IMG/VR virus record: IMGVR_UViG_3300002036_000001
Coordinates: 72,506-98,866 of that record
Length of the DNA stretch: 26,361 nt
Strand: one strand, 5' to 3'
From: a virus
The notes under the pieces were generated by a model. That model worked only from the letters and a program-made list of their open reading frames with translations. It did not search any database and was not told where the DNA came from. Every line of letters starts with the position of its first letter. Within the stretch, counting starts at the first letter, position 1. Positions 2,027 to 17,749 of the stretch are shown here, in pieces. The position numbers and the translations under genes are program-made.

Positions 2027-3892
2027 TTAGTTTGTTTTTTTCTCAATTTCTATTATTTTACTTGTACTTTCTATAAAATTAGATAATAGTTTCATAACAG
2101 AATCTCTTTTTTCATTAGATTTAAAATTAGATAATCTTTTTATTACAATAGGAAACAATTGATAAGGCTCTAATAAAGTTTCTTCTATTAATTTTTCTAA
2201 TCTATCATTCTCTATATTATCTTTTTTAGTATTTTCTTCTTTTTCTAAATCATCCACTACTGTGTCTAAATTTTTACTAGCAGGGAGTTCTATTACTTTT
2301 ACATCATCTATTTTTGCTATATTTGTTATTCTAGTACAATTACCTTTATCTATTTCATATATTTTTTCAGCATTTAATGGACTAATAATTCCTGTAAATA
2401 ATTCTCCTCCATAGTATATACTTTGTCTATTAGAATCCTTATACTTATAAGACATGTCTATAATAGGATGAACCGTACATAAAGATAAAGAACTAACATC
2501 AAAAGGCATTCTCTCTTTTTTTAAACTTATACAAGCATCAAAATCTAACTGAGTTGATATTCTTGCTCCTTCAAATATATAAAAGAAATATCTTGATATG
2601 TCTGTTATTTCTTGATTCTTATTATGAACAAAGGGTATAAATCCTTTTTTAGAATTTTTTTTATTTTTTTGAAAACAATTATTCTTAAAAGGAATATTAA
2701 CTAAAGACCAAAATGTATTTTCTGCTTCTTTAGTATTATCTCCTAATTTATAAAATCCATAATTAGTTATCCAAGCATATACTCCTGTAATAGTATGTCC
2801 ATTTCTCCAATATCTTAATTTATTAAAATAAACTTTACCTTTATAATCTTTTAGATCTTTTAAAGTCTTTTCGTTATAAATATTCTTCTTATCAGATAAA
2901 CTTGAAGAAGATATATTGGTAGAAGTACCTTTACTCTTATCAAAATTTATAGTATCATACCCACTACATGCATCATAATTAGGATATGTTCTACCATAAT
3001 TTTGATGATAATTTTGGTATCTATAAGTTTTTAAATGATGACAGTTTTTTCTACTTATACTAAACTTAGTAGCTTTTTCTACATTACCATCTACTATCCT
3101 ATAGACTACATTATGTGAAAACTCACCTATAGTATCTGGATTTCCTCCTATAGCTATTAAACTATCTTCTATAGAAGAAATATATAAACTATTTCTTGTT
3201 TCCTTATAATAAAATAAAGGTCTTTCTTGATATATCACATCTCCTTTATCAGTATTATATTTTTTAGAAGCACCATGGTAACAGTAAATTACATTAGGTT
3301 CTCTAGTATCTGTAAAAACTAATGCAGCAGCTCCGTTATATTTACTAAGAACCTTATAATTACTATTTTTATAAATACATTCTAATAGTATTTCACTATC
3401 TATTTTGTTCCTAGTATTACCTTTTGATAAAGTTTGAACTTCATCTACATTAAAATCTTTTGCAAGATCTTTATAATTTAAAAGAGATCCATTATGCACT
3501 CCTATAAAAGAAAAACCATCATTATTAAACCCGAATCCAAATGGATGTGCATTATCCATTGTATTTGCTCCCACTGTACTTTTTCTAGTATGACCAATAA
3601 CTACAGGAAAATTAATAGGTTTATCATAGTCAATATTAGATAAGAAATCTCTATATGCTTTTTCTTTATCTACTCCTAAATATATGTCACCATCTACAGT
3701 AATTCCACAAGAATCTGTTCCTCTAGTTTCATTCATTATTCCTAGAATATCCAATTTTTGTTTATTGAATTTTTTAGTAGATTTACCTGCCCATGCAAAT
3801 ATTCCACAATTTAATTGATTTTCTTTAACTCCAAAAATAATTTTTCCTAAAGTATCAATTGCTAATAATATTAATATTATGCTAATTATCAT
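2027..3892 (-). CDS. class II (Ntn) glutamine amidotransferase with N-terminal hydrophobic extension
   Basis: CGIFA, RGTDSCG, GHTRKST, NAHPF, HNG, DSE, RPL motifs. Confidence 0.88.
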   Translation of the reverse strand: MIISIILILLAIDTLGKIIFGVKENQLNCGIFAWAGKSTKKFNKQKLDILGIMNETRGTDSCGITVDGDIYLGVDKEKAYRDFLSNIDYDKPINFPVVIGHTRKSTVGANTMDNAHPFGFGFNNDGFSFIGVHNGSLLNYKDLAKDFNVDEVQTLSKGNTRNKIDSEILLECIYKNSNYKVLSKYNGAAALVFTDTREPNVIYCYHGASKKYNTDKGDVIYQERPLFYYKETRNSLYISSIEDSLIAIGGNPDTIGEFSHNVVYRIVDGNVEKATKFSISRKNCHHLKTYRYQNYHQNYGRTYPNYDACSGYDTINFDKSKGTSTNISSSSLSDKKNIYNEKTLKDLKDYKGKVYFNKLRYWRNGHTITGVYAWITNYGFYKLGDNTKEAENTFWSLVNIPFKNNCFQKNKKNSKKGFIPFVHNKNQEITDISRYFFYIFEGARISTQLDFDACISLKKERMPFDVSSLSLCTVHPIIDMSYKYKDSNRQSIYYGGELFTGIISPLNAEKIYEIDKGNCTRITNIAKIDDVKVIELPASKNLDTVVDDLEKEENTKKDNIENDRLEKLIEETLLEPYQLFPIVIKRLSNFKSNEKRDSVMKLLSNFIESTSKIIEIEKKTN

Positions 3893-3895
3893 TTT

Positions 3896-4696
3896 TTATA
3901 AATTTATTAATTCTTTTTTTAATTTTTCAATTTTTGCTATTAGTACAATTGCTTTTTCTTTATTATTTAAATTAATACATTCTTCTATATCATCAGAATA
4001 ATTATTAATTATATAATTTATAACACCTGTATTTACTAATTCAATAGCTTCCATGGTTTTATTAAAAGCCCATTTCATAAGTTTATCATTTACTATCCAA
4101 AAATTTGATAAACTTCTATATTCTACTCCATAGTTTTTAAATCTAAAACTACCAGCTTTACCATACATTTCTTTTCTTCTATCATCTTTGTCCAAATTAA
4201 TAGATTCTAATCCAAGTACAGCATCCATAGCATATATAATCTTTTCACTTACTTCTTGAGAAGGATTATCATACCCTATATGAATATGTCCTCCACAAGT
4301 CCTTAATCTAGTATCACTACTAGGGGCAGAGTTTATAGATTTTGAATAAACATTAAAATCAGGCTCACATCCAAATTGCTTTGCTTGAGGAGTTTCTAAA
4401 AATCTTTGATCTAATTCTGCTGATGCACTATAATTTAAAGAACATCCTTGTAATTTAGAAAGAATTTCTAAATGATTTTTTACAAAATTCATATTGGTTA
4501 CAAAAGATTTTACATCAACACAAGCAGGAATATTAAATTCTACCATAACATTATCTTCTTGTATAGCATGTCCTTCTTCACTAATTTTTTTAGGTTCTAA
4601 TTTTGTACCTCCAATTAATCCTTCTGCTGAAATTATTTCTCCATTTTTTTCAAGAAACAATTCAGGATCGCTTCCTATTTTTATATTTTTTAACAT
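3896..4696 (-). CDS. phiEco32-like COOH-NH2 ligase type 2
   Basis: IGSDPELFL, QEDNV..EFNIP, FGCEPDFN, RTCGGHIHIG, RR..YGKAG.FR...YGVEYR.LSNFW. Confidence 0.9.
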   Translation of the reverse strand: MLKNIKIGSDPELFLEKNGEIISAEGLIGGTKLEPKKISEEGHAIQEDNVMVEFNIPACVDVKSFVTNMNFVKNHLEILSKLQGCSLNYSASAELDQRFLETPQAKQFGCEPDFNVYSKSINSAPSSDTRLRTCGGHIHIGYDNPSQEVSEKIIYAMDAVLGLESINLDKDDRRKEMYGKAGSFRFKNYGVEYRSLSNFWIVNDKLMKWAFNKTMEAIELVNTGVINYIINNYSDDIEECINLNNKEKAIVLIAKIEKLKKELINL

Positions 4697-4721
4697 TTTA
4701 TTATTTTTAAATTTATAATTT

Positions 4722-5408
4722 TTAATTTAGTATATTGTAAAGTAAATCTGTACATACTTGTTTATAAGGAGTACATGCGTCTGTATATTCAGGATGACCT
4801 TGTATACATAATTCCTTTTCCTTATATATAATTATTTCAGGTTCCTTAAACTTATCTTTTAATTCTATTTCTGAATTATCTCCGTTTAAATAAGTAGTGC
4901 TTAAATATCTTTTACTCCATCCTACGATTTTATAAGGAGAACTTCTTTTTGTAGGAAGCATCATTTGATGATGACTTGAAGTAGCTTTACAAGTATATAT
5001 ACGATCAATTTCATGTAATCTTACATGTATATCATGTTCTGTATTATGTCCATTTACATGTTGAATTAATTTTCCTCTATTTAATACAGTAAGAAGTTGT
5101 GCACCTCTACATATACCTAACTTAGGAGTATGTCTAAACATTTGATATATACTTCTCTCTAAAGTATCTCTATCAGTATCTATAAGAGTATGTTTTCCAG
5201 TTTTTTCTCCATAAAGAGCTGGAGAAACATCAGAACCTCCTGTAAAAACTAATAAATCTATACTAGAGGCTTTTTTATATGTCTCAGACTTATTATCTAT
5301 CATGTCTTTCATATAATAAACATTTATATCTCTTTTAAGTCTATTTAAAAATATTAAATAATCATTATTAAAGTAAGAATCTACTAATATATTTAACTTT
5401 TTATTCAT
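4722..5408 (-). CDS. class I glutamine amidotransferase / peptidase C26 family
   Basis: FTGGSDVSP..YG, LGICRGAQ (catalytic Cys), SSHHQ, QGHPE. Confidence 0.9.
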   Translation of the reverse strand: MNKKLNILVDSYFNNDYLIFLNRLKRDINVYYMKDMIDNKSETYKKASSIDLLVFTGGSDVSPALYGEKTGKHTLIDTDRDTLERSIYQMFRHTPKLGICRGAQLLTVLNRGKLIQHVNGHNTEHDIHVRLHEIDRIYTCKATSSHHQMMLPTKRSSPYKIVGWSKRYLSTTYLNGDNSEIELKDKFKEPEIIIYKEKELCIQGHPEYTDACTPYKQVCTDLLYNILN

Positions 5409-6282
5409 TTTTTTTATATTTATTTATTAATAATTTAGGAATTATTTCTATATATTTAATAAGAGTCTTTTCTCCAAAAGAAGGTGCAGAATTTATTTCT
5501 ACTATTATAAATTTAGGATCTTCCCTAATTATTCCTTCTTTATTTTTAGAAGATTGTATTCTTAAATCTATTGCACCAAAATCTAACCCCACAGCTTTTA
5601 AAGCTTCTACGCTTTCTTTTACTATAATATCCCAATTTTTAGGTTTATCAAATTTTTCATTATCTTCCATAAACCATACACAATGGTCATTATTTCTGTA
5701 CCATCTTTTTTCTTCTGGAGTATCCTGCTTTAACATCTTTCTACAAGTGTAAAAACAACCTTCTTCTGTAACATGTAATCTATACTCTCTATTATAATTA
5801 TAGAACTTTTCAAATATATAATCTTTTAATTTATCTCCTTTTTGTTCTATAAATTTTAGTAAAGAATCTATATTATCATGCTTTATATTTCCTTTACCTC
5901 TACTTCCAAATATATTTTTAGAAATAATTGGAAAAGGTAAATCAGATAACTCATAAGGAGCTTCCTCTGAATTATTTTCTAAGAAAAAAGCATGACTGCC
6001 ATCCCATTCTCCTCCATATGACCACCAATCTGCTGTAATAATATTATTATTACTAAAGCAAGTCTTCATTAAACCTTTGTTTGCACTATTTTTAATAGCC
6101 TGAATAGTATTTAGTTCTATTCTATTTCCACCATTTGTAACAGAATCTTTCATATCTGTAAAAGATCCCAACCTAACAACAGATTTAAAAGGTAAAAAAG
6201 GAAAAATACCCTTTTCTCTTAATGTATTATGAGAAGGGTGTCTACTTCGTATTCTAGGTAGAAATTTAGTGTATTTAGACAT
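5401..6282 (-). CDS. ATP-grasp ligase
   Basis: EYRLHV, GLDFGAIDL, IIVEINSAP motifs. Confidence 0.88.
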   Translation of the reverse strand: MSKYTKFLPRIRSRHPSHNTLREKGIFPFLPFKSVVRLGSFTDMKDSVTNGGNRIELNTIQAIKNSANKGLMKTCFSNNNIITADWWSYGGEWDGSHAFFLENNSEEAPYELSDLPFPIISKNIFGSRGKGNIKHDNIDSLLKFIEQKGDKLKDYIFEKFYNYNREYRLHVTEEGCFYTCRKMLKQDTPEEKRWYRNNDHCVWFMEDNEKFDKPKNWDIIVKESVEALKAVGLDFGAIDLRIQSSKNKEGIIREDPKFIIVEINSAPSFGEKTLIKYIEIIPKLLINKYKKNE

Positions 6283-6694
6283 AATTTTTTATTTTAGATA
6301 ATTTTTTAAATTCTTTCCAATCTCCATTTTTTACTAATGAAGAATTACCTAAACTATTAGAAGAACCTGTATTATAAAAATAAGTATAAGCTTTTCCATA
6401 AGGTGTAATTATTTCCTCTCTTTCATAGTAATTATTAGAACAAGAACTTTCACTATACCCTTCTAAAGAATCTATTTTAGATAAACATAATTGATTTACT
6501 TTATATACCTCCATTACTACAGAAGTAACTCCATTCTTTAATAATCCTGGAAAAGATCCTAAAGAATGCATAGAATAAATAGGTAAAGTATCAAATTGTC
6601 CTACAAATTCTTGATCTTTTAAGTAATGGCTGTTTCCTAAATCTTTTCTAAGACTACCATATACTGCTACTAATATTTCTTTTTTAACTGTCAT
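6275..6694 (-). CDS. gamma-glutamylcyclotransferase (AIG2-like)
   Basis: VAVYGSLRK..GN, FPGL, EVY.V, D.LEGY, Y.R, GDW. Start placed at ATG 6694 (MTVKKE) because the 6721 start overlaps the primase end. Confidence 0.88.
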   Translation of the reverse strand: MTVKKEILVAVYGSLRKDLGNSHYLKDQEFVGQFDTLPIYSMHSLGSFPGLLKNGVTSVVMEVYKVNQLCLSKIDSLEGYSESSCSNNYYEREEIITPYGKAYTYFYNTGSSNSLGNSSLVKNGDWKEFKKLSKIKNYV

Positions 6695-6704
6695 TTTATT
6701 TTTT

Positions 6705-7730
6705 TTAAAAGGGAATATCAATACATGTTTCCCAAATTTCTTTTATTTCTTCTCTTCCATAGTTTTTAACTAAATCACTAAAATCCTTTGATTCAAATTT
6801 ATCAGGAATTTCTAATCTTATTAAATCAAATTTAGAACATAATTTAGTACTAAATTTTCTACCCCAATTCTCTTTTTTGTCAAAATCATTATCATAAAGA
6901 AGAGATACTCTTTTAAATCTACTTTTTAATTGTTGAATAATATGAGTTTTAGGAGTAATTGCTTCTGTTTGTAATGATAATGTAGGCATGTTTAATAAAT
7001 TATCTATAGCCATTACATCTTTTAAAGATTTAGTAATTATCAAATTATCTCCTTTTTCAGGTAATTGACTCCATCCTTGCCATACTGAATCATCGTGATT
7101 ATTTAACCATTTGTATTTTGTACTAAACGGTTGATATATTTTATAAGTTTCTTTTTTATCTTTATATTCTGTAAAACAATAGGCATATTTTTCCGCTAAA
7201 ATGGGTTGACCATTTATAAAGACATAAGAAATAGGAGTTACGTTATATTTTTTTAATGTATCCATATCTATTCCAAAATCAGACCAAAATTTAACATCTA
7301 ATAATGTCCATTTTCTAAATTTTTTACCTAGTCTAAAGTTATTGGCTTTATTTAAAACACTTTTTCTATCTGTATAAGCAGTAGGATTATATTCTTTTGA
7401 AGTTTTTTCTGATTTTTTATAATGAAATTTATCTGTTAAGTTAAAATCAACTACTATTTTACTAAGAGCTTCAAAAAAATTTAAACCAAATCTTAATTGT
7501 ACAAATTTTACAAAATCACCTCCTCCTAATACAAAATCGTTAAAACATATTTCATTATTTTCTCCTATAAAATACCCAAAAGATTCTTTATTATCTTCTC
7601 TTAATGGAGATTTCATTACGCCATTTAAAGATACTTCTTTTCCTGTATAAAATCTATATATATCAATGTCTTGTAAGTGGATTAATAGTAATGATTTTGT
7701 TACTAATTTTTTATTTAAATTTATAATCAT
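6705..7730 (-). CDS. DNA primase (TOPRIM, crAss-like type)
   Basis: SPLRED...SF degenerate Zn-finger region, KIYQP, IITKSLKD and LYDND TOPRIM motifs, SKDFSD. Confidence 0.82.
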   Translation of the reverse strand: MIINLNKKLVTKSLLLIHLQDIDIYRFYTGKEVSLNGVMKSPLREDNKESFGYFIGENNEICFNDFVLGGGDFVKFVQLRFGLNFFEALSKIVVDFNLTDKFHYKKSEKTSKEYNPTAYTDRKSVLNKANNFRLGKKFRKWTLLDVKFWSDFGIDMDTLKKYNVTPISYVFINGQPILAEKYAYCFTEYKDKKETYKIYQPFSTKYKWLNNHDDSVWQGWSQLPEKGDNLIITKSLKDVMAIDNLLNMPTLSLQTEAITPKTHIIQQLKSRFKRVSLLYDNDFDKKENWGRKFSTKLCSKFDLIRLEIPDKFESKDFSDLVKNYGREEIKEIWETCIDIPF

Positions 7731-8393: not shown

Positions 8394-9167
8394 TTATTTT
8401 TTATTAATAAAAATTTTAGACCAATCTACTTTTACATTATTAGATTCGTCTGATTCTGCAACTACAATTTCTTGACCTTTTAAGTGATTACTTCTAGCTC
8501 CACATATTAAAGTATCAGAGGAAGCAAAATTAATTATTGTTTTGTTCTTCTCTCTATATAAATACCCTATTGCATCCACTTGTGAACATAATATTGCAGC
8601 ACTTTTACCAGTAAGGTCTAACCCTCTCTCATTCATTTCTTTACCTTCTTTTTCAACCAATTTATCTTTGACATGTCCTAATATAATTAAGGTGTCACAA
8701 ATTGATTCTAGCTCTCCTAAAACCATTGATAATGCCATTCTTGTAAATCTATATCCAGCTCCATTTGGAAGGGTTGTAACATCTGTTCCAATCCAATTTC
8801 TTCCCATAGGAGTATCTTTATATAGTTTTTTAGCTAAAGGAAGTACAACATCTTCTAGTGCTGTTACAGTATCTAAAGAGATGTATTTATATACATACTT
8901 TCCCCTTTTTTTATTTTCTTCCTTTATTTTATTTATCAAAGCCTTTAAAATAACTATAGGTAATTTATCTTGCTTTTCTGCTTCTGTTAGTACATCATAC
9001 TTTAAAGCATTTACAAAATGAGAACCTTTTTCTAAATCAATTGTTAAACAATTATCTAATTCAGAAATTATAGTAGTTTTTCCCATCTTAGGTAAACTAA
9101 ATATTACCATAGATTTAGGATTTATTCTACTTGCTTTTTCTTTTTCTTTCGGTAACTCTATATTCAT
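8394..9167 (-). CDS. AAA_24 / Sak4-like P-loop ATPase
   Basis: Walker A SLPKMGKTT, IDLEKGS, Walker B ISLDTVT, GAGY, ILGH, DAIGY. Confidence 0.85.
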   Translation of the reverse strand: MNIELPKEKEKASRINPKSMVIFSLPKMGKTTIISELDNCLTIDLEKGSHFVNALKYDVLTEAEKQDKLPIVILKALINKIKEENKKRGKYVYKYISLDTVTALEDVVLPLAKKLYKDTPMGRNWIGTDVTTLPNGAGYRFTRMALSMVLGELESICDTLIILGHVKDKLVEKEGKEMNERGLDLTGKSAAILCSQVDAIGYLYREKNKTIINFASSDTLICGARSNHLKGQEIVVAESDESNNVKVDWSKIFINKK

Positions 9168-9204
9168 TCTATCATCTTCTCCGACCTTTCCTACCTCTGT
9201 TAAT

Positions 9205-9720
9205 TTATAAAAATTTCTTTACCTCACTTAAATGAGTAATAATTTTACTTCTATCATTAGAATCTTTACTCATATAGCCAGGTTTAAATTGAATACCTAA
9301 TTTTCCTTTACCATTTTTATTTATATTATTAATAGTGTCTGGTTTGTCATCTATTAAAATATCTATGTTTAATCTGTTCATTATTTCTAATTTGTTTGAA
9401 CTATGATAAACAGGTCTTTTAGGAAATCCATTTATTTCTAACCATAATTTTCTATATTTTATCATACTAGCAGGAGATGCAGTAATGTAGCATTCTACAT
9501 CAAAGTCTATACTTTCTGGATTTGATAAAGTATTTAACTGTGTCCAAAATACTTTGTTATTTTCTACAAGTTTAAAATTATCTTTAATCCATTTTGCATC
9601 TTTTTCTCCATCCCATATATTAATTCTATCTTCTTTTCTGTTCAAATACTTACAGAAATCTTGATAAAAACATGCTAATACATCGTCAATATCTAATGCT
9701 ATTTTCTTATTAGTCTTCAT
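9205..9720 (-). CDS. HAD-superfamily 5'(3')-deoxyribonucleotidase-like phosphatase
   Basis: IALDIDDVLA (DxD), YITA, LIDDKP. Confidence 0.82.
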   Translation of the reverse strand: MKTNKKIALDIDDVLACFYQDFCKYLNRKEDRINIWDGEKDAKWIKDNFKLVENNKVFWTQLNTLSNPESIDFDVECYITASPASMIKYRKLWLEINGFPKRPVYHSSNKLEIMNRLNIDILIDDKPDTINNINKNGKGKLGIQFKPGYMSKDSNDRSKIITHLSEVKKFL

Positions 9721-10042
9721 TATTTTTTAGGTTTTTATCAATAAATCTATCATCCATGTCTTTTCTAAATAAAAACATATATGACAGAAACATTGCATTA
9801 CATAATATATGTCCTACATGAGCTAATTTACTTTCTTTATCTTTGTTTTCTCCATCTATAAAAGATATGAGATGTCTCATAAGGCTCTCACATATTTCTG
9901 AATATTTTAGTCCTTTTTTCCAATTATGTGAATCATATTTCTTTGCTCCAAACATTAGAACCTTAACCATAGGCTCTAATGCTCTGAAACTTGTTAAGGA
10001 CCAATTTAATTTATTTTTATTATCTCTAGTTCCTATCTCCAT
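9710..10042 (-). CDS. dATP/dGTP diphosphohydrolase domain protein (DUF5664-like)
   Basis: KL.W.L, VLMFGAKKY..HNWKKG, SLMRH, GE..D.ES.LAH.GH..CN.MFL. Confidence 0.85.
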   Translation of the reverse strand: MEIGTRDNKNKLNWSLTSFRALEPMVKVLMFGAKKYDSHNWKKGLKYSEICESLMRHLISFIDGENKDKESKLAHVGHILCNAMFLSYMFLFRKDMDDRFIDKNLKNNED

Positions 10043-10997
10043 TTATTCTCTTTCTAATACTATTAATAAAATTTTTAACCTTGTTTATTCCTATTAGGTC
10101 ATTAGATAATGGAAGTTCTTTGAAAAAATTAACAGCTCCATCAAAATATAAAGGACATATTGTTCCTCCTCCACCTTGTCTACTTGCTAAAATTTCTAAA
10201 AATCTTATATTATCTCGAAAAAAAGTAACATCATAACCTTGATATTCTTTAATTTCATGTCTAAAAGGACTAAAAAGCCCTAAAATAGTATCTGCATCTC
10301 TATGAGTTAATTTACAATCACCTAGTCCATCCATTGATGGTTTTAATTTGTTTGATCTGAAATTATCTAAACTCTCTTGAGAAGCTGCTTGTTGTTGAAT
10401 AACTACTGGTATATAGTTAAATTTATTTCTTAACCTAATTAAATAATTAGAAGATAATTCTACTATAGAAGCATGTAGACCTAGTTGAACTCCTCCTCTT
10501 CTTTCAGGAGAAATTAAACTAATATGATCTATGATAACCATGACATATTCTTCCTTATTATCAGGTTCATACCAATCATCTATTTCCTTTTCTACTACTT
10601 CACCAGTTTTATTATTAACAAAAGGTACTATTTTTTTATGTTGTGTACCATTATTTAAAGCATATTCATTTACAAATTTAAAAATTCCTGTTGGATTTCT
10701 TATATCATCTATGAATTCTACAATCTCTTCTATTTTATCAAAATATGGTTGATATTTTTCAATTAAAGTTATTGTTTTTTCATCTAATACTCCGCTTTCT
10801 CTAGTACTAGTTAAATCTTTAGGAGAAATTCGTACACCTTCCTTCTCATAAAGAATATTAGAAAATGCTGATAACATTTTCTGCTCCTTAGACATTTCTA
10901 AGGAAAAATAAAATATTTTTAATTTAATATTTAGTTTCAAATCTATAACCCTTTTTATAGCGTTATATACAAATAACGAATCTGTTATTTGAGTTTT
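10026..10997 (-). CDS. dnaB: DnaB-like replicative helicase, exon 3 (KTQITD... to stop)
   Basis: Starts with the KT of Walker A; YFSLEM, VIIDHISL, QQ, GLGDCK..HRDAD, SRQG. Immediately preceded by the intron terminal G at 10998. Confidence 0.92.
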   Translation of the reverse strand, partial: KTQITDSLFVYNAIKRVIDLKLNIKLKIFYFSLEMSKEQKMLSAFSNILYEKEGVRISPKDLTSTRESGVLDEKTITLIEKYQPYFDKIEEIVEFIDDIRNPTGIFKFVNEYALNNGTQHKKIVPFVNNKTGEVVEKEIDDWYEPDNKEEYVMVIIDHISLISPERRGGVQLGLHASIVELSSNYLIRLRNKFNYIPVVIQQQAASQESLDNFRSNKLKPSMDGLGDCKLTHRDADTILGLFSPFRHEIKEYQGYDVTFFRDNIRFLEILASRQGGGGTICPLYFDGAVNFFKELPLSNDLIGINKVKNFINSIRKRINGDRN

Positions 10998-11010
10998 CAA
11001 TTTTGTTACT

Positions 11011-11565
11011 TTAAAATCTTTTTACACCTTCTTTAATTTCTTTAGATAAATATCCCATACCTTTCAATATATTATATAGAGAATATTCTCCAACTCCTTT
11101 GTTATTCCATTCTTTAATAGAATCGCTATAATTATTTACTAATACTCCAAATCTATATTGAGACTTTAGAAGAATTATAAGAGTTGTAATAGATATTTCT
11201 TTTTTCTGAAATTTATCTATTGTTTTATTATCCCAAGTATGTACTACCCATTTTTTAATATCTGGACAAAATATTATAGCAAGTCTTGTCTTTGTTATAT
11301 TTAATTCTATTAATACTTTAATAGCTTTACAAAGTTCTGAAAAACTTATTTTTATACCTTGTGTTAGTAATACTGAATAAATATCTCCAAATGATCTAGC
11401 TTTTCCACTTGAACAAGTTCTTTCTGATACGTTTGTTCCAGATTCGTTAGACTTGCTAAAAGTGGCTGGAAATCCATAAAAATCATTGTAAAGCCTTTGA
11501 AGATATAATAATAAAGGTTCACTTTTTTCTTTTCTATATTGTTTTCTTAAATATAATTTTTTCAT
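11011..11565 (-). CDS. hypothetical protein in loop L9.2 of intron 2
   Basis: 184-aa ORF closed by perfect 10-bp stem UUAAAAUCUU (11572-11581) / AAGAUUUUAA (11011-11020). Confidence 0.8.
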   Translation of the reverse strand: MKKLYLRKQYRKEKSEPLLLYLQRLYNDFYGFPATFSKSNESGTNVSERTCSSGKARSFGDIYSVLLTQGIKISFSELCKAIKVLIELNITKTRLAIIFCPDIKKWVVHTWDNKTIDKFQKKEISITTLIILLKSQYRFGVLVNNYSDSIKEWNNKGVGEYSLYNILKGMGYLSKEIKEGVKRF

Positions 11566-11583
11566 TTTTTTAAGATTTTAAGA

Positions 11584-11994
11584 TCAAGTTATTTCTACTT
11601 GATTCTGAAATTTATTATAATATGATTTTTCTAATATCTCTATTATTTCTTTTTCTTTATTATACTCGTCTGTATTATATTCATTAGGATTAAATTTGTA
11701 AACATTATCTATTTTATCTATTACAAATTTCCAATGTCCTGTACCTGGAGTAGCATTTTCAAATACTAAAGTATCTACATTACCACAATACAGACAATTT
11801 AAGTAATTTTCCCCTAATAAAGTCATTATTTCTGCATTTATTTTATCAGAATTTACTTTATCTTCAAATAAGTATTCATGTATGTAATCTAAAGTAACTC
11901 CTGTATATAAGTCTTCGCAAACTGTATCCAATACTTCTAAATATTTTTCAGAGAAATATTCTTTTAATTTTTTATTTATTTCTTTACTGTTCAT
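11584..11994 (-). CDS. hypothetical acidic protein in loop L9 of intron 2
   Basis: 136-aa ORF within stem CUGAAA (12007-12012) / UUUCAG (11605-11610); last codons form hairpin P9.1 (11583-11603). Confidence 0.78.
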   Translation of the reverse strand: MNSKEINKKLKEYFSEKYLEVLDTVCEDLYTGVTLDYIHEYLFEDKVNSDKINAEIMTLLGENYLNCLYCGNVDTLVFENATPGTGHWKFVIDKIDNVYKFNPNEYNTDEYNKEKEIIEILEKSYYNKFQNQVEIT

Positions 11995-12031
11995 ATTAAT
12001 TTATTTTTTCAGTTCGGACTGTTTCATTAAC

Positions 12032-12373
12032 CTAATAATTACTATAAGGAAATAATACTCCATATACATCACATTTCTTTCTAGAGAGTGTGTCTCCAGA
12101 TCCTGTTTTGTGATAATGTGAAATTAGATCTACTATTTCTTCATATTTTAAATTTAAATAATTACCTTCATAATATATTCCATTTTTAGGTCTTTCCTTG
12201 TCAGTCTCTACACCGTTTTGTAGTAAATTTTTAGCATATTCTTTTTCAGATTTCCAATGTGAAGGATATTTTTTATTATAAGCTTCACTAAGTTTATCTA
12301 AAAAATAATTTAATATGTTAATCAATTCACTATCAAGTGACGGCACGAGATTATCTTTTATATTTTTTTCCAT
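12032..12373 (-). CDS. hypothetical protein overlapping the catalytic core of intron 2
   Basis: 113-aa ORF; DNLVPS encodes the P4'/P6 strand, GVETDKERP encodes P6'/P7/P3'/P8, stop lies in P8'. Confidence 0.6.
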   Translation of the reverse strand: MEKNIKDNLVPSLDSELINILNYFLDKLSEAYNKKYPSHWKSEKEYAKNLLQNGVETDKERPKNGIYYEGNYLNLKYEEIVDLISHYHKTGSGDTLSRKKCDVYGVLFPYSNY

Positions 12374-12777
12374 AAGTATAAATGTTGTAGTTTATTATTA
12401 TGTCTAGGATTTTTATAACTAATTATATCTTTAAAACCAACTTCTAATAAAGCCTTAGAAAAAGGATTATCCACATAAGTACTTCCTACAACTGTTTGAA
12501 TCATTCCTATATCACTAGTGAAATAAGAATGATTGGCATTATCAGGCTTTAATTGCCTTTTTTTTAATTTTTCTTTAAATTTTTCTAGTGTTTTTACTAT
12601 ATTTTCTATTTCTTGGCATGTAGTAGATTTCCAATCATGTAGTATGTATGATCCACATCCTGATGGATTTTCTTTTAGTTTAAAACTTACTAAAAGATTT
12701 TCTCCATTTATTTTATGTAATTCACTTACTTGTAAATAATTATGCCATTTTCCTTTTTCTATTAAACTTACTTTCAT
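12358..12777 (-). CDS. putative GNAT-like protein in loop L5 of intron 2
   Basis: 139 aa; P.GCG..IL and ALLEVGF...SYKN; enclosed by P5 AUCUU (12785-12789) / AAGAU (12353-12357). Function inferred. Confidence 0.7.
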   Translation of the reverse strand: MKVSLIEKGKWHNYLQVSELHKINGENLLVSFKLKENPSGCGSYILHDWKSTTCQEIENIVKTLEKFKEKLKKRQLKPDNANHSYFTSDIGMIQTVVGSTYVDNPFSKALLEVGFKDIISYKNPRHNNKLQHLYLWKKI

Positions 12778-12854
12778 TTTATATAAGATTTTCCTCGTTA
12801 GCTAATATTTCTATTAACCCTCCTGTAAGGAGATTCGGATTTTTAGTTATTTTT

Positions 12855-13496
12855 TTATAAACGGTGATATACTTTTATCATATTTCCAGAATTAACATTT
12901 TTATAAGAAAATTGAAGACTAAACCCTAATCTTTCTACAAAATTTATCGCAGATCTCTGCTTATGAGATAAGTGAGCAAGTTTTGCACAACCAATTTCTT
13001 TTAAACATTCTTTTATATAATTTATTTCCTCTTCTGTAAGAGTTATTAATACAGAATGTATTTTAGGAACCTCTTCAAAACCATATAATATCATACATCC
13101 ACAACAATCTGGATGTGGTTTAGTAGAAAATAATCTAATAGGTTTATTATTAACACTTACAAAAGATTGTACTCCATATTCTTTAATATATTTTGTATTA
13201 ACTTTAGTTAAAAAATAATCATGAGAGCTGATATGTGAATTATTTATTTTTTTAATAAAAAGTTTTTCTTTTTTTTGTATTTGTGTATTTCCCTTTACTA
13301 TTTCTAAAAGAGTTATTTTTCCTTTTTCTAAATCATAAGAATTGAATCCATATATTTTAGAATATAGAATACTTCCATTAAAATTAGGAGGTCCTATCTT
13401 ATCTTGAAAAAAACTATAATAATTTCCTCTTTTTCTTATTACTCCTTGATATTTTTTACCTTTTATTTTTAATGTTACAAAATCACCTGTTTTCAT
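12855..13496 (-). CDS. putative GNAT-like protein in the loop of a P2.1 stem of intron 2
   Basis: 213 aa; PDCCGCMIL and AINFVERLGF...SYKN; enclosed by AGUUAUU (13521-13527) / AAUAACU (12845-12851). Function inferred. Confidence 0.7.
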   Translation of the reverse strand: MKTGDFVTLKIKGKKYQGVIRKRGNYYSFFQDKIGPPNFNGSILYSKIYGFNSYDLEKGKITLLEIVKGNTQIQKKEKLFIKKINNSHISSHDYFLTKVNTKYIKEYGVQSFVSVNNKPIRLFSTKPHPDCCGCMILYGFEEVPKIHSVLITLTEEEINYIKECLKEIGCAKLAHLSHKQRSAINFVERLGFSLQFSYKNVNSGNMIKVYHRL

Positions 13497-13564
13497 TTTT
13501 TATATTTTTATATTTTTTATAATAACTTTACCATAATTGTTACCAATTACAGGGGCAAAAATCT

Positions 13565-13573
13565 ACCCACTTT
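13565..13573 (-). CDS. dnaB: DnaB-like helicase exon 2: 9-nt micro-exon AAA GTG GGT (KVG)
   Basis: Preceded by G, ends in U, and restores Walker A TANS-KVG-KT in frame. Confidence 0.9.
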
Positions 13574-13611
13574 CGTTTATATTCCATAAAGTTCGTAACT
13601 ACTTTATGCGT

Positions 13612-13740
13612 TTAATCAATTTTAATTTCTGTTAAATTATCAACAGTTATAGATGCTCCATTTATAAACTCTATTATAAATTTATCACCATCTTCGTAAA
13701 TTTTTACTTTATGTTTATTTTTGTAAATCCCCACTTTCAT
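13612..13740 (-). CDS. 42-aa ORF in loop L9.1 of intron 1
   Basis: MKVGIYKNKHKVKIYEDGDKFIIEFINGASITVDNLTEIKID; A-rich leader; enclosed by 11-bp stem 13754-13764 / 13610-13620. Confidence 0.55.
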   Translation of the reverse strand: MKVGIYKNKHKVKIYEDGDKFIIEFINGASITVDNLTEIKID

Positions 13741-13909
13741 AATTTTATTTTTTATTAATTAAACTGCTATATATTTCTATATAGACTGGACTATATCTTC
13801 ATCTCACTGAGATGCCCTCCGCTTCCAATACCATTAACTTGTATTGTACGTGCTTTATTGCACTAGTCTCTGAACCTTAATTTAATCTTGGCTGCTGATT
13901 GTCATATAT

Positions 13910-13935
13910 AAAAAAAGACACTATTAAAGTGTCTT
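13910..13935 (-). terminator. terminator-like hairpin within the P5 extension of intron 1
   Basis: AAGACAC-UUUAAUA-GUGUCUU then UUUUU, about 40 nt after the endonuclease stop. Confidence 0.4.
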
Positions 13936-13976
13936 AAATTATACTTAGATTTTCCAGCAATTCAAAGGGTAATCAT

Positions 13977-14687
13977 CTAGATGTCACCATCTAGCGTAGC
14001 TTTTATTATTAAATATTTCTTTTTAAATTTCCTTTCAGTTTTAATACCTTTTGATATTTCACTTGGAAAGTAACCAAAATATTTTGCACAATCTTGTAAT
14101 GAATTAAAAACTTTATATACTTCATTTGTATTAATATTTTTAACTATAACTTTTTTGCACATATAAGAATTATCTTTTTTAGATTTAACATAAGGATTTA
14201 ACGATTTTTTATAATCTAATGACCATAAATACCCTCCTCCTTTATTATAAGTTCCATTTAAAAATCTACAAATTGTAGATTGACTTATATTATTATCAAG
14301 ACAAGCTTGTTTTATATAATCATATTTTTTAATAAATGTACCATCTAAACTATATTGATATATTTCTTTACCTGTAATTATATTATTAACCACATCTTTT
14401 ATGAAGTTAAATTCAGGTTTTAAATTATTAATATAAAATTGTTCTCTTTTTATAAGAATATTTTTATCACAAAATTCTAATATAATATATATAAAATTTT
14501 TAGATTTATTTTTATTCCAAGAATTCTGTAAATAATCATTATGATGTTTATTATTTCTTAACATCATTTTATGATTAATAATTCTATCATAAATATTTTT
14601 TGAACTTCCTATATATTTTTTTTGGTTTTTTAAATTTAAAATACAATAAATACCTGATTTTTTACACTGTTTATTTAATTTTTGCAT
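13977..14687 (-). CDS. GIY-YIG homing endonuclease with NUMOD1-like repeats, in L1 of intron 1
   Basis: SGIYCI..L.N.K.YIGSS.N...R...H, REQFYI, PEFN; C-terminal IYQYSLDG.FIK.Y...A..GGY.W and FNSL..CA repeats. ATG 14687 preferred over TTG 14708, which is part of the promoter. Confidence 0.92.
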   Translation of the reverse strand: MQKLNKQCKKSGIYCILNLKNQKKYIGSSKNIYDRIINHKMMLRNNKHHNDYLQNSWNKNKSKNFIYIILEFCDKNILIKREQFYINNLKPEFNFIKDVVNNIITGKEIYQYSLDGTFIKKYDYIKQACLDNNISQSTICRFLNGTYNKGGGYLWSLDYKKSLNPYVKSKKDNSYMCKKVIVKNINTNEVYKVFNSLQDCAKYFGYFPSEISKGIKTERKFKKKYLIIKATLDGDI

Positions 14688-14705
14688 AAATTTTTTAATT
14701 TTATA

Positions 14706-14736
14706 CAAAAATACGAAATTTTTATGTAAATGTCAA
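14706..14736 (-). promoter_or_regulatory. Bacteroidota sigma-A-type promoter for the homing endonuclease
   Basis: TTG (14734-14736), 20-nt spacer, TATTTTTG (14706-14713) matching -33 TTG / -7 TAnnTTTG. Confidence 0.7.
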
Positions 14737-14771
14737 GTAATTAACGCATTATTTTTTGATTATTTAAAAAA

Positions 14772-14927
14772 ACTATTTGCTGTAACTAAATAATATTTAC
14801 CTTGTTCTATTCCTGGATTTTCATTTTCAAATCTAGGTAATCCCCAAGGTATACAATTAATTTTACCAGAAAGAATTCTATTCCTTCTTTTTTTTATGCT
14901 AGTTAGCACTCTATTAAATAAACTCAT
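14772..14927 (-). CDS. dnaB: DnaB-like helicase exon 1 (52 codons)
   Basis: MSLFNRVLTSIKKRRNRILSGKINCIPWGLPRFENENPGIEQGKYYLVTANS; typical pre-Walker A segment; ends in U. Confidence 0.92.
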
Positions 14928-14934
14928 TTTTAAT

Positions 14935-15543
14935 TTAATTTAATTTACTAGTCCAATCTTGGACTTCATTTTCTTCTATTTCATCTATAAATGCAGATAA
15001 TCTAGAAGATTCTTCTTTATTTCTATCTTGTTTGAATATAAAATAATCAGCTCTTTGTAAATAATGAAGATTTCTACCTTCTGTACTTAAATAAATATCT
15101 GCTGCTTTTAAAATATCTTCAAAAGTATATTCTGGATTTTCTTCCATCCATCTAGTTAACTTTTCTTTACAAGATTTCAATCCACCTCTTGCTCCTGCTT
15201 TTAATCCTTTCCATTTATCTCTAAATTCAGAAGCTCTTTTTTCTACCTCTTCACTTACTTTAGAAATAGATTTCTTTTTTACTTTCTTATTAGAGTATAC
15301 TAATGTAGAAAGATCTACTAAAGAATTTTTTATTAAATTTAATGATTTCTGTCTTAGTATTATTTCTTTTCCTATTTTTAATTGTCTTATTTTTATTAAT
15401 CTTTTCTTTTGTAAAATCTCTAAATCAATACTAGTATCTATGTAATCTTTATCAAGATACATAAAACTAATATATAAAAATTCATTAATAGTTACGTCAT
15501 TTTCTTCTAATTCCTTAAAATTTACTATTAACGATTTATTCAT
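14935..15543 (-). CDS. hypothetical protein, possibly replication initiator or helicase loader
   Basis: 202 aa between polymerase and helicase; function inferred from position only. Confidence 0.5.
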   Translation of the reverse strand: MNKSLIVNFKELEENDVTINEFLYISFMYLDKDYIDTSIDLEILQKKRLIKIRQLKIGKEIILRQKSLNLIKNSLVDLSTLVYSNKKVKKKSISKVSEEVEKRASEFRDKWKGLKAGARGGLKSCKEKLTRWMEENPEYTFEDILKAADIYLSTEGRNLHYLQRADYFIFKQDRNKEESSRLSAFIDEIEENEVQDWTSKLN

Positions 15544-15759
15544 TTATATTTTTTTAAAAATTTCATCCATACTTATAGAAAATTTATTAGGGTTTATTTT
15601 TAAATTTAAACTTGTTTTATAATTTTCAATTTCTATAATTGGAATAATTGTATTAAACTCTTCTTTTACTTTATTTTGAATATCTGAATTATCCTCTAAA
15701 TTATATGCACTTATTATTAAATCTATTATGAAAATATTTTCATTAAATTTTTTTATCAT
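15544..15759 (-). CDS. hypothetical protein
   Basis: 71-aa ORF abutting neighbours. Confidence 0.65.
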   Translation of the reverse strand: MIKKFNENIFIIDLIISAYNLEDNSDIQNKVKEEFNTIIPIIEIENYKTSLNLKINPNKFSISMDEIFKKI

Positions 15760-15778
15760 GTTTTTAAAATTTTAGTTA

Positions 15779-17749
15779 TTAGTGATTCCAATAAGTAGTA
15801 ATTACTGCATCCGCTTTTAAAGGTATAGTAGTACACCATACTCCTCCTGCTTTTTCCATACATTTTTCTAGATACTCAGCAGCTAATTTTGTATATGAAT
15901 TATGAACCTCTAAGTTTATTTCATCATGTACTAAATTAGTGATAGATACATAGTTTTGAAGATTATTTTCTAATATCCATCTTCTAAATAATATTGCAGC
16001 AAATTTTGTGATACTTCCTGCTGCTCCTTGTATAATATAATTAAGACAAGCTCTTTCATATTTTCCTTTTAAAGTATAATAACTTCTCCAATCTCCTATG
16101 TTTTTAAATTCTTTAAGCTTATCAAAGTCTTTAAAATAAAACTTTCTCTTAGTAATAGGATCTATTTCTATAAATCCTCTCTTCATAGATATTCTAATTG
16201 TTTCATCAAAAAACTCTCTTAATCTAGGAAATGCTTCAAAATAAGAATTATATATTTTTTCTCCTTCTTCTTTGGATACTCCTAAATTATTAGAAATAGT
16301 ATATGCATTACCTCCATAAGCTAAAGCAAATACAACTGTTTTAGTTATTTGTCTTTTATCAGAGTGATTAGATTTTATTTCTTCTAAGGTTAATCCTTCT
16401 AATTCTTTAAAGATTTTTCTAGCATTAAAACTATGCATATCTGTAAAACCCTTATGATAAAACTCTAACAGATCTGGATCTAAGGAAGTGTTTACTAAAC
16501 AAATATTTTCTTGACCACTATAATCTGCATTAACAATTTTATAATTATCAGGAGAATTAAAAGCTGATCTAAATTCTTTAGTAGCAGGAATATTTTGTAA
16601 ATTAGGATTTCTACTAGATATTCTACCTGTATTTAATATTTGCCTATAATTACTATGTAATCTATTTGTTATAGGATTAACGTGCTTAAAGAAATCTATA
16701 CCAAAAGTAGAACATGATTGATCTTTTTCTCTAAATTTAATATACTTCTTTAAAAATACTAATTTATCTTCTTCTATATTCTTATTCTTAGTGTTTAAAG
16801 AACTTATTAAAACTTTTGATTCTACAGTATACGTTAATTTTTTAGTTGTCTTAGATACTTCCATAGGACATATATCTAAAAACTTAAAAAACTCTATAAC
16901 TTGTTTAGATGATGTCCATTTTATATTACATTTTATTTCATTACTAAACAAATCTAATTGTCTTTCTATGAAATTAGAATCCATATAATTATCTAATACA
17001 AATTTATTTAATTCTTTTTCTAAATTTACTTTTTCTATAAGATTATTTTTATAAGTATTTTTCCAAATATCTTTATCAAAATGTATCCCTTTATACTCTA
17101 TTTCCCCTAATACAAGAAGAAATTGCATCTCTAATGATACACATTTTCCTAGTTGTTTAGTTTCTATATCTATTTCTTGTTGTTCTTTAACTAAAATAGG
17201 ATATAAAATATCTTCTGCACCATATTTTATTTGAGAAACTGTAAATTTTTTATCTTTTATTTCTAAAAATTCTAATGCAGTAGTCTTATCTACTTCTACT
17301 CCTAGATACCTTTTATTTAATTCCTTTAAAGAATTGCTTAAATTATATCCATTAAATAGTATCTGTTCTACAATCATTGTATCATAAACTTTATTTAGTC
17401 TAGTTTTGCAATTATGTAATATATGTAGATATTCAAATTTTAAATTTTGACCTATAATAATAATAGAAGGGGAACTAAGTAAAGGATATAACATAGATAT
17501 ATCTGTACATCTAAAGTCTATTATATATTGTCTATTTTTAGTACCTAATTGAACCATTACTATACTAGAAAGATATGGATCTAACCCTTCTTTTTCATAC
17601 TCTCCTCCAAATTTTCTTGTAGTTTCTATATCTAATGATATTTCTTTTTCATCTTTTAGATAATTATAACATTCTAGAACAGTTGAAGATTTAAATTCTT
17701 CATATTTTATATCTCCTATAAAATATATATTAAATTTTTCTTTCATCAT
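15779..17749 (-). CDS. polA: family A DNA polymerase with 3'-5' exonuclease domain
   Basis: LDIET exo I, TGRISSRNPNLQNIP, motif A ADYSGQE, motif B RQITKTVVFALAYG (Phe at the 762-equivalent), NYIIQG, motif C VHDE. Confidence 0.96.
   Translation of the reverse strand: MMKEKFNIYFIGDIKYEEFKSSTVLECYNYLKDEKEISLDIETTRKFGGEYEKEGLDPYLSSIVMVQLGTKNRQYIIDFRCTDISMLYPLLSSPSIIIIGQNLKFEYLHILHNCKTRLNKVYDTMIVEQILFNGYNLSNSLKELNKRYLGVEVDKTTALEFLEIKDKKFTVSQIKYGAEDILYPILVKEQQEIDIETKQLGKCVSLEMQFLLVLGEIEYKGIHFDKDIWKNTYKNNLIEKVNLEKELNKFVLDNYMDSNFIERQLDLFSNEIKCNIKWTSSKQVIEFFKFLDICPMEVSKTTKKLTYTVESKVLISSLNTKNKNIEEDKLVFLKKYIKFREKDQSCSTFGIDFFKHVNPITNRLHSNYRQILNTGRISSRNPNLQNIPATKEFRSAFNSPDNYKIVNADYSGQENICLVNTSLDPDLLEFYHKGFTDMHSFNARKIFKELEGLTLEEIKSNHSDKRQITKTVVFALAYGGNAYTISNNLGVSKEEGEKIYNSYFEAFPRLREFFDETIRISMKRGFIEIDPITKRKFYFKDFDKLKEFKNIGDWRSYYTLKGKYERACLNYIIQGAAGSITKFAAILFRRWILENNLQNYVSITNLVHDEINLEVHNSYTKLAAEYLEKCMEKAGGVWCTTIPLKADAVITTYWNH

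Follow-up and report, generated by a model that had tools for sequence, protein, structure and literature searches.

ORF113, an open reading frame of 113 codons on the minus strand of a marine crAss-like phage, is quite probably a gene for a protein, set within a group I intron and traversing the 3' half of its catalytic core, with a protein that would be translated from, and an intron that would splice itself by, the same nucleotides, each activity excluding the other. A single stretch of RNA would then be both enzyme and message, and ~50 related introns keep the fold as well as the frame. Where reading frames are known to overlap intron cores, the overlap is mostly confined to a handful of codons at an end of a homing-endonuclease gene, and its consequences have been tested in one system, T4 td/I-TevI. 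The intron family described here forms a natural series, from a bare core with 26 codons to proteins of over 200 residues, that suits two questions: the joint constraints of RNA and protein on one sequence, and the possible control of splicing of an essential replication gene by ribosome traffic.

A helicase gene split within its Walker A motif

The window (the whole stretch of DNA analysed, 26,361 nt) is part of a 98.9-kb virus record with a G+C content of ~25% and genes on the minus strand; the nearest named relative of the phage is Cellulophaga phage phi14:2 (Crassvirales, Steigviridae). The neighbourhood of ORF113 is a replication module comprising a family A DNA polymerase, a replisome-organiser-like gene, a GIY-YIG endonuclease and a DnaB-like helicase, the last of which is in pieces: a 55-codon ORF (14760-14927, minus strand) ends in ..GKYYLVTANS and the main helicase ORF (10026-11000, minus strand) begins with ..KTQITD. 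Three related loci (L007, L012 and L013) have an uninterrupted helicase gene reading ..TANS KVG KTQ.., which is the Walker A loop, and the window helicase has two insertions within this motif. Removal of the insert restores ..TANS-KVG-KTQ.., an exact match to L007, and joined exons read TANS-KVG-K(T/S)Q, the Walker A sequence of the three uninterrupted genes. The motif of the window is built from three exons (14760-14927, 13565-13573 and 10026-10997, minus strand), the middle one a micro-exon (Table 1).

The insertion nearer the start of the gene, intron 1, is an undoubted, textbook group I intron that scores 91.4 bits against RF00028 (E 2.7e-24) when a 441-nt stretch is searched (window 13767-14000). 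It went unreported by cmscan of the whole window at the gathering threshold and of positions 9000-16000 (7 kb) at an E-value threshold, an artefact of the speed filters given the score of the short-stretch search; such filters can conceal genuine introns in DNA this rich in AT. Inside intron 1, downstream of its GIY-YIG gene, lies a terminator-like hairpin followed by a U-run (13915-13935, minus strand). L008 has both introns, with the micro-exon AAAAUUGGU (KIG) and an intron 1 devoid of an endonuclease ORF, and phi14:2 has intron 2 only. The gut crAss-like Bacteroides phage PhiCrAssBcn14 (L002) has a GIY-YIG-carrying insert in the same Walker A region (2742-6103), and its helicase is interrupted a second time further downstream, by an 876-nt ORF.

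Intron 2, the host of ORF113, holds five complete ORFs, of which ORF113 is the third. An insert of 2.2-3.6 kb is found exactly at KVG^K(T/S)Q (the caret marks the junction) in phi14:2 and five other phage lineages, with differing sets of ORFs. The 5' end of the intron, GGGU^AGA..UUGCCCC followed by a hairpin, corresponds to the P1 guide and P2 and is kept in seven phages. All seven also keep ..GUGGGU^AGAuuUUUGCCCC.., in which the U of the 5' exon forms a U.G pair with the internal guide sequence; the intron-less allele of L007 has GUAGGU where the intron-bearing phages have GUGGGU. The 3' end, AGUAACAAAnUG^, has the terminal omega-G, reading AGUAACAAAnUG^AAAAC.. in six phages and ..GAUAG^AAAUC in phi14:2. 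Between these ends the seven inserts share short, near-invariant blocks (Table 1) separated by unalignable sequence.

The core of intron 2 and the reading frame across it

Scanning public viral and metagenome contigs with the R block recovered 78 loci with 49 distinct Q-to-R segments. Conserved P, Q, R and S blocks recur throughout these 49 distinct introns and the seven first relatives; the R block is 92-100% identical among relatives. RF00028 gives no match to window positions 11960-12420 even at E <= 10, and searches of wider stretches are also blank, so that assignment of the ribozyme relies on comparison with relatives. The blank result is explained by the separation of the core strands by 427 nt (L5, with ORF139), 123 nt (L6) and 150 nt (L8). 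The compact relative L027, which has almost no loop insertions, aligns to RF00028 over the whole model (positions 1-253) with 47.3 bits (E 4.9e-11; gathering score 50), and the alignment places P4/P5, P5'/P4'/P6, P6'/P7/P3', P8, J8/7-P7' and P9 in the expected order, with its copy of the Q block at P5'/P4'. The blocks of the window are near-identical to those of L027.

Compensatory change backs all of the core helices P3, P4, P5, P6, P7 and P8. P4 is paired at all six positions in 39/39 introns, position 4 being G-C in 37 and A-U in two, one of which is the window (ACGAGG/UCUCGU). Position 4 of P5 is likewise paired in 39/39 (U-A 30, A-U eight, C-G one), and another position of this helix is U-A or C-G. 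In P6 the pairing is kept by 48-49 of 49 relatives, and one copy shows two compensatory changes (GCCGU/ACGGU versus GGCGC/GCGCU); P7 is paired in 45/45, with a closing pair that is A-U in 24, G-C in 21 and never mismatched. Four positions of P8 show compensatory changes (AACCU/AGGUU versus AUCCU/AGGAU, ACCU../..AGGU, AACUC/GAGUU). P3' covaries with P3 (UUCC/GGAA, CUCA/UGAG, UUCA/UGAA, CUCU/GGAG, CUUA/UGAG), the helix being fully paired in 19/21 introns and forming three of four pairs in the window. Our starting guess that the region is not an intron was dropped on the strength of the conserved blocks and this covariation. By these sequence comparisons intron 2 is a genuine group I intron, and one that would be expected to splice itself.

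Table 1. Positions of the introns, reading frames and core elements in the window, with the blocks shared by the inserts
Feature	Positions	Strand	Sequence or description
Intron 1 of helicase	14771 to 13574	-	group I intron; carries GIY-YIG gene
Micro-exon	13573-13565	-	AAAGUGGGU; 9 nt between introns 1 and 2; supplies KVG
Intron 2 (host of ORF113)	10998..13564	-	2,567 nt; between micro-exon AAAGUGGGU and exon 3 (AAAACUCAA...)
ORF139	12358..12777	-	fills L5; stop 12358-12360 in extended P5 3' strand; end overlaps ORF113 start
ORF113	12032..12373	-	113 aa, ATG start (AUG 12373); read through 3' half of ribozyme core
Partner strands outside ORF113	12785..12840	-	P3 12837-12840, two small hairpins, P4 12793-12798, P5 12785-12789
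Q block	12345..12357	-	P5', J5/4, P4'; ORF113 codons K-D-N-L-V
P5'	12357-12353	-	AAGAU; pairs with P5 12785-12789
P4'	12350-12345	-	UCUCGU; pairs with P4 12793-12798 (ACGAGG)
P6	12344-12340	-	GCCGU
L6	12339-12217	-	123 nt; codes helical peptide module
P6'	12216-12212	-	ACGGU; P6 stem + L6 span 12212..12344
R block	12194..12211	-	J6/7, P7 5' strand, J7/3, P3'; ORF113 codons G-V-E-T-D-K-E
P7 5' strand	12206-12202	-	GACUG
P3'	12197-12194	-	GGAA
P8	12191-12186	-	ACCUAA; P8 stem + L8 span 12030..12191
L8	12185-12036	-	150 nt; codes C-terminal module
P8'	12035-12030	-	UUAGGU; contains stop UAG 12034-12032
S block	12017..12029	-	J8/7 + P7'; P7' CAGUC 12021-12017; immediately 3' of ORF113
P3 block of inserts			NUCMGAAU; shared by 7 inserts
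P element (P4 and P5)			GCUAACGGGGAAAcuCUUU; shared by 7 inserts
Q element (P5', P4' and P6)			AAAGACAAUCCCGUGCCGUCACUUGAU; shared by 7 inserts
P6' + R element (P7, P3' and P8)			AAAACGGUGUAGAGACUGACAAgGAacAACCU; shared by 7 inserts
P8' + S element (J8/7, P7' and P9)			UAGGUUGAUGAGACAGUCCGAACUAUA; shared by 7 inserts

Two small hairpins, CUCCUUACAGGAG and GGUUAAUA-GAAA-UAUUAGCU, stand between P3/GAAU and P4 in the window (12800-12832, minus strand). In relatives a whole ORF is found in the loop of the second of these J3/4 hairpins, which is an unusual location for an insertion in a group I intron, and L087 has neither hairpin. The intron family also occurs outside the helicase Walker A site (L027, L043, L052, L056, L094, L028 and L047), including copies between the polymerase and the replisome organiser (L027 and L043) and beside an uninterrupted helicase (L094); L030 has two copies (1232-1447 and 2703-3074). 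As it is found at several sites, the family has moved between genes, although most of its copies are without a recognisable homing endonuclease.

A sequence-only reading of this DNA had described a frame that stays open across P5', P4', P6, L6, P7, P3', P8 and L8, stops in P8' and starts within the end of the upstream ORF. When the element coordinates were verified base by base on the minus strand, this description was borne out in full: P5', P4', P7 and P3', together with each strand of P6 and of P8, fall within 12030-12357, inside ORF113 or at its end, the AUG lies in L5, 16 nt before P5', and the overlap with ORF139 is 16 nt. The other two frames of the 342 nt contain 10 and 21 stops, and when L6 and L8 are shuffled, two of 100,000 versions remain open; the openness of the frame is therefore not due to chance.

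That reading had further proposed that a frame of this length is under selection for a protein, to be judged by frame conservation and dN/dS in homologous introns, and comparison of the relatives upholds it. Between the Q and R blocks 22 different spacings occur, from 25 to 283 nt, and in 49/49 introns the spacing is 1 mod 3, although the introns are related to one another and such counts overstate the number of independent events; the control distance, from the P to the Q block, splits 18/14/7 among the residue classes. L6 lengths always differ from the minimal 25-nt form by a multiple of three. Stops in L6 number one in 1,688 codons of the ORF frame, against 193 in 1,735 and 275 in 1,688 (11-16%) in the other frames. 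In that frame 46/47 of the long L6 loops are free of stops; the exception, L049, indicates that the gene is open to loss. In 32/45 introns the R and S blocks are 2 mod 3 apart, which makes the ORF end at the conserved UAG of P8'. Among loop-coded peptides that are alignable between introns, dN/dS of individual pairs ranges from 0.17 to 1.07, and the pooled pN/pS values are 0.46 (L6) and 0.39 (L8). Together with protein homologues of the loop modules (see below), this pattern strongly supports, at the level of sequence, an open frame selected for its protein across the ORF113 family.

The frame might otherwise be an unselected run-on, an accident of the core or debris of 'core creep' (overlap of an intron ORF with the core) that yields no functional product. 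Only the ORF frame is open through the core blocks, block E having stops in both other frames; the minimal relative L027 has a bare core with a frame of just 26 codons, so a frame through the bare core need not code for anything useful; and neither a function nor a confident fold was found for ORF113. A run-on fails to account for the uniform Q-to-R spacing, the near absence of L6 stops, pooled pN/pS values below 0.5, the shuffling result or the existence of homologues for both loop modules, and we regard it as extremely improbable.

A second alternative concerns the product rather than its selection. Relative to ORF139, ORF113 is in the -1 frame, and seven A's stand in the stretch that the two share (12358-12373, AUGGAAAAAAAUAUAA), so a -1 frameshift on the run GGAAAAAAAU could yield an ORF139-ORF113 fusion protein, comparable to L025, in which an L5-coded GNAT domain is fused in frame to the core ORF. 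We consider this improbable: the A-run is broken in the relative L005, and ORF113 and most relatives have their own AUG, typically 15-21 nt before the Q block. ORF139 itself was tried as a homologue of the N-terminal GNAT domain of L025 and is unsupported as such, the match (E 0.23) not being significant. The L5-coded N-terminal extensions vary among relatives, and in L025 (883-1551) the GNAT acetyltransferase domain (PF00583, 28.4 bits) contributed by L5 is part of a 222-aa protein.

The predicted ORF113 product and the division of constraint

A word-index protein search with ORF113 returned the protein itself and one marginal match. Exhaustive HMMER searching found homologues of the L8 module (P0006, P0007, P0009 and P0010) and of the L6 module (P0005), the best E-values for the former being 1.8e-12 (P0006, 48% identity) and 3.5e-8, with 43-48% identity to P0006/P0007. 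ORF113 matched nothing in Pfam, PHROGs, NCBIfam or the ESM Atlas, nor in a tblastn search of phage records; the homologues P0005-P0010 matched nothing in Pfam or PHROGs scans, and P0006 as a query for related loci found no viral contigs. AlphaFold2 modelled ORF113 with a pLDDT of 64 from the single sequence and 46 with a six-row alignment, which was too poor to use. In the pLDDT 64 model helices are predicted for the parts coded by L6 and L8, and confidence is low where the core does the coding, a pattern that would be compatible with linkers; a Foldseek search of the PDB gave nothing at E <= 0.001. No nuclease domain of the GIY-YIG, HNH, LAGLIDADG, PD-(D/E)XK or His-Cys box types was recognisable in ORF113 from protein families, structure or homologues. 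Cys-rich tails (CxC..CxxC) are coded in L8 of many relatives, ORF113 itself having no such tail, and a faint restriction-endonuclease-like match (PvuRts1I-like N, E 0.021) occurs in the N-terminal part of some core-spanning ORFs, as in L063 (7413-7916, minus strand). Such N-terminal parts or Cys tails might serve a mobility function of the intron family.

About 26 codons of ORF113 are core RNA (KDN-VPSLD ... NGVETDKE-P), and in these the nucleotide pairing dictates the residue. The codon at the closing pair of P7 is GAC (Asp) where P7' has C and AAC (Asn) where it has U, in 45/45 cases, yet P7' sits beyond the ORF113 stop codon. Lys/Asn and Asp/Gly changes at the KD residues similarly track the P5 partner strand. 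From these comparisons the peptide of the core blocks appears as a by-product of the RNA. In loops L6 and L8 the nucleotides diverge past alignment, and the frame is kept, as are the amino acids where this is measurable.

The L6 and L8 groupings by similarity disagree among introns: L6 of L033 matches L040 and its L8 matches L084, L079 and L071, and L6 of L026 matches L084 and its L8 matches L052. The modules have therefore been exchanged independently, presumably via recombination at the conserved blocks. A broader reading takes the ribozyme core as a universal in-frame adaptor, through which modules arriving in L5, L6 or L8 would be joined into one protein and shuffled by block recombination; they would be expressed as a single protein because the Q, R and P8' blocks are near-invariant and open in one frame. 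We offer this tentatively, together with the suggestion that passage of the ribosome between the fixed AUG and the fixed UAG may additionally act as a timer that delays splicing of the helicase message. If true, the adaptor reading would amount to domain shuffling inside a catalytic RNA.

Translation, splicing and known systems

As we picture it, translation of ORF113 would start at the AUG in L5 and end at the UAG built into P8'. The core codons would have their sequence set by the RNA, with the peptide following as a linker, and L6 and L8 would each code for a small peptide module under purifying selection. These modules would be swapped independently between introns, with the conserved core blocks as in-frame joints. 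A ribosome on ORF113 would unwind P5, P4, P6, P7, P3 and P8, so that one RNA molecule could not be ribozyme and message at once; folded ribozyme and translated message being incompatible, the two uses would therefore have to be separated in time or between molecules. Competition of translation with splicing is implied physically by this geometry.

Separation might be sequential, with the RNA splicing first and the mRNA then being supplied by the 2.6-kb intron once excised or by transcription from a promoter within it, in which case the overlap would be non-regulatory. The ribozyme need act only once, the excised intron has five complete ORFs, and T4 expresses I-TevI late from its own signals, which avoids interference (PMC3073962). 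Against this, sigma-70-like promoter matches in the intron are no more than shuffled sequence gives, and nothing matches a Bacteroidota-type pattern, these being the two promoter types scanned for; moreover, with transcription and translation coupled in bacteria, ribosomes can load onto an RNA whose 3' splice site has yet to be made. Sequential use is as simple an explanation as competition, and we give it a substantial chance, somewhat short of even.

The overlap might instead be a regulatory switch, the strong form of what the sequence-only reading suggested. Ribosomes translating ORF113 and ORF139 would then compete with core folding while the pre-mRNA is still being made, and the rate of initiation would set the spliced share of helicase mRNA and so tune helicase output. 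The position of the AUG close to P5' and of the ORF139 stop in the extended P5 3' strand fits a switch, as do transcription of the 3' splice site ~1 kb after the core and conservation of the L5 start and P8' stop across the intron family. There is also a precedent, since premature translation of I-TevI on td core sequences causes a splicing defect (PMC3073962). However, mere tolerance of the overlap would give rise to this layout as well, and the existence of L027, with its 26-codon core ORF, and of L049, with a broken ORF, means that translation through the core is dispensable to the intron. On balance we hold a regulatory switch to be possible but doubtful.

The closest known system is the T4 td intron with its I-TevI ORF (Gibb & Edgell 2010, reviewed in Edgell, Chalamcharla & Belfort 2011, PMC3073962), in which ribosomes on core sequences can impair splicing and expression of the ORF is timed by the phage (PMC3073962, PMC3984707). 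Like intron 2, td is of group I and interrupts a protein gene of a phage, and its ORF shares nucleotides with core helices (P6a and P7 in td). In td, however, the overlap is the last 20 nt of a one-loop ORF, whereas ORF113 crosses P5', P4', P6, P7, P3' and P8 with modules in two loops, is not a recognisable homing endonuclease, and belongs to a 2.6-kb intron with five ORFs. Overlap of this kind is established in group I introns as 'core creep', spanning 9-81 nt and involving endonuclease genes (PMC3073962 Table 1), with 81 nt over P6/P7/P3/P8/P9.0/P9 in the LAGLIDADG intron of Synechococcus lividus LSU rDNA and 56 nt in the GIY-YIG intron of B. thuringiensis nrdF (PMC3073962). These cases resemble ORF113 in that an intron ORF runs through several core helices, with its sequence under RNA and protein constraints, but they are single endonuclease genes reaching from one loop into the core. 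In the ORF113 family the core frame is kept in ~50 introns, with exchangeable modules in L5, L6 and L8 and with start and stop fixed in L5 and P8'. The layout of ORF113 thus differs from known core creep in crossing the whole 3' half, linking two or three loops, having a fixed start and stop, and having a product that is not a known endonuclease.

In gut phages of the crAss-like Delta and Zeta groups, Yutin et al. (2021, PMC7886860) detected group I introns by the endonuclease domains that these carry. Those introns are self-splicing and interrupt core genes of Crassvirales for replication and structure; intron 2, predicted to splice itself, likewise interrupts a replication gene, but it carries non-endonuclease cargo. 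In the literature searched, the helicase intron 2, its non-endonuclease cargo and the ORF threaded through its core are not described. For annotation, the consequence is that these helicase genes are recorded as fragments and that standard covariance-model scans miss the introns. In the public record of phi14:2 (L001), g024 (64 aa; 3446-3613) and g029 ('DnaB'; 6230-7171) are two exons of one helicase gene that are annotated as separate genes, the join being absent from the record, and g025-g028 sit within the intron.
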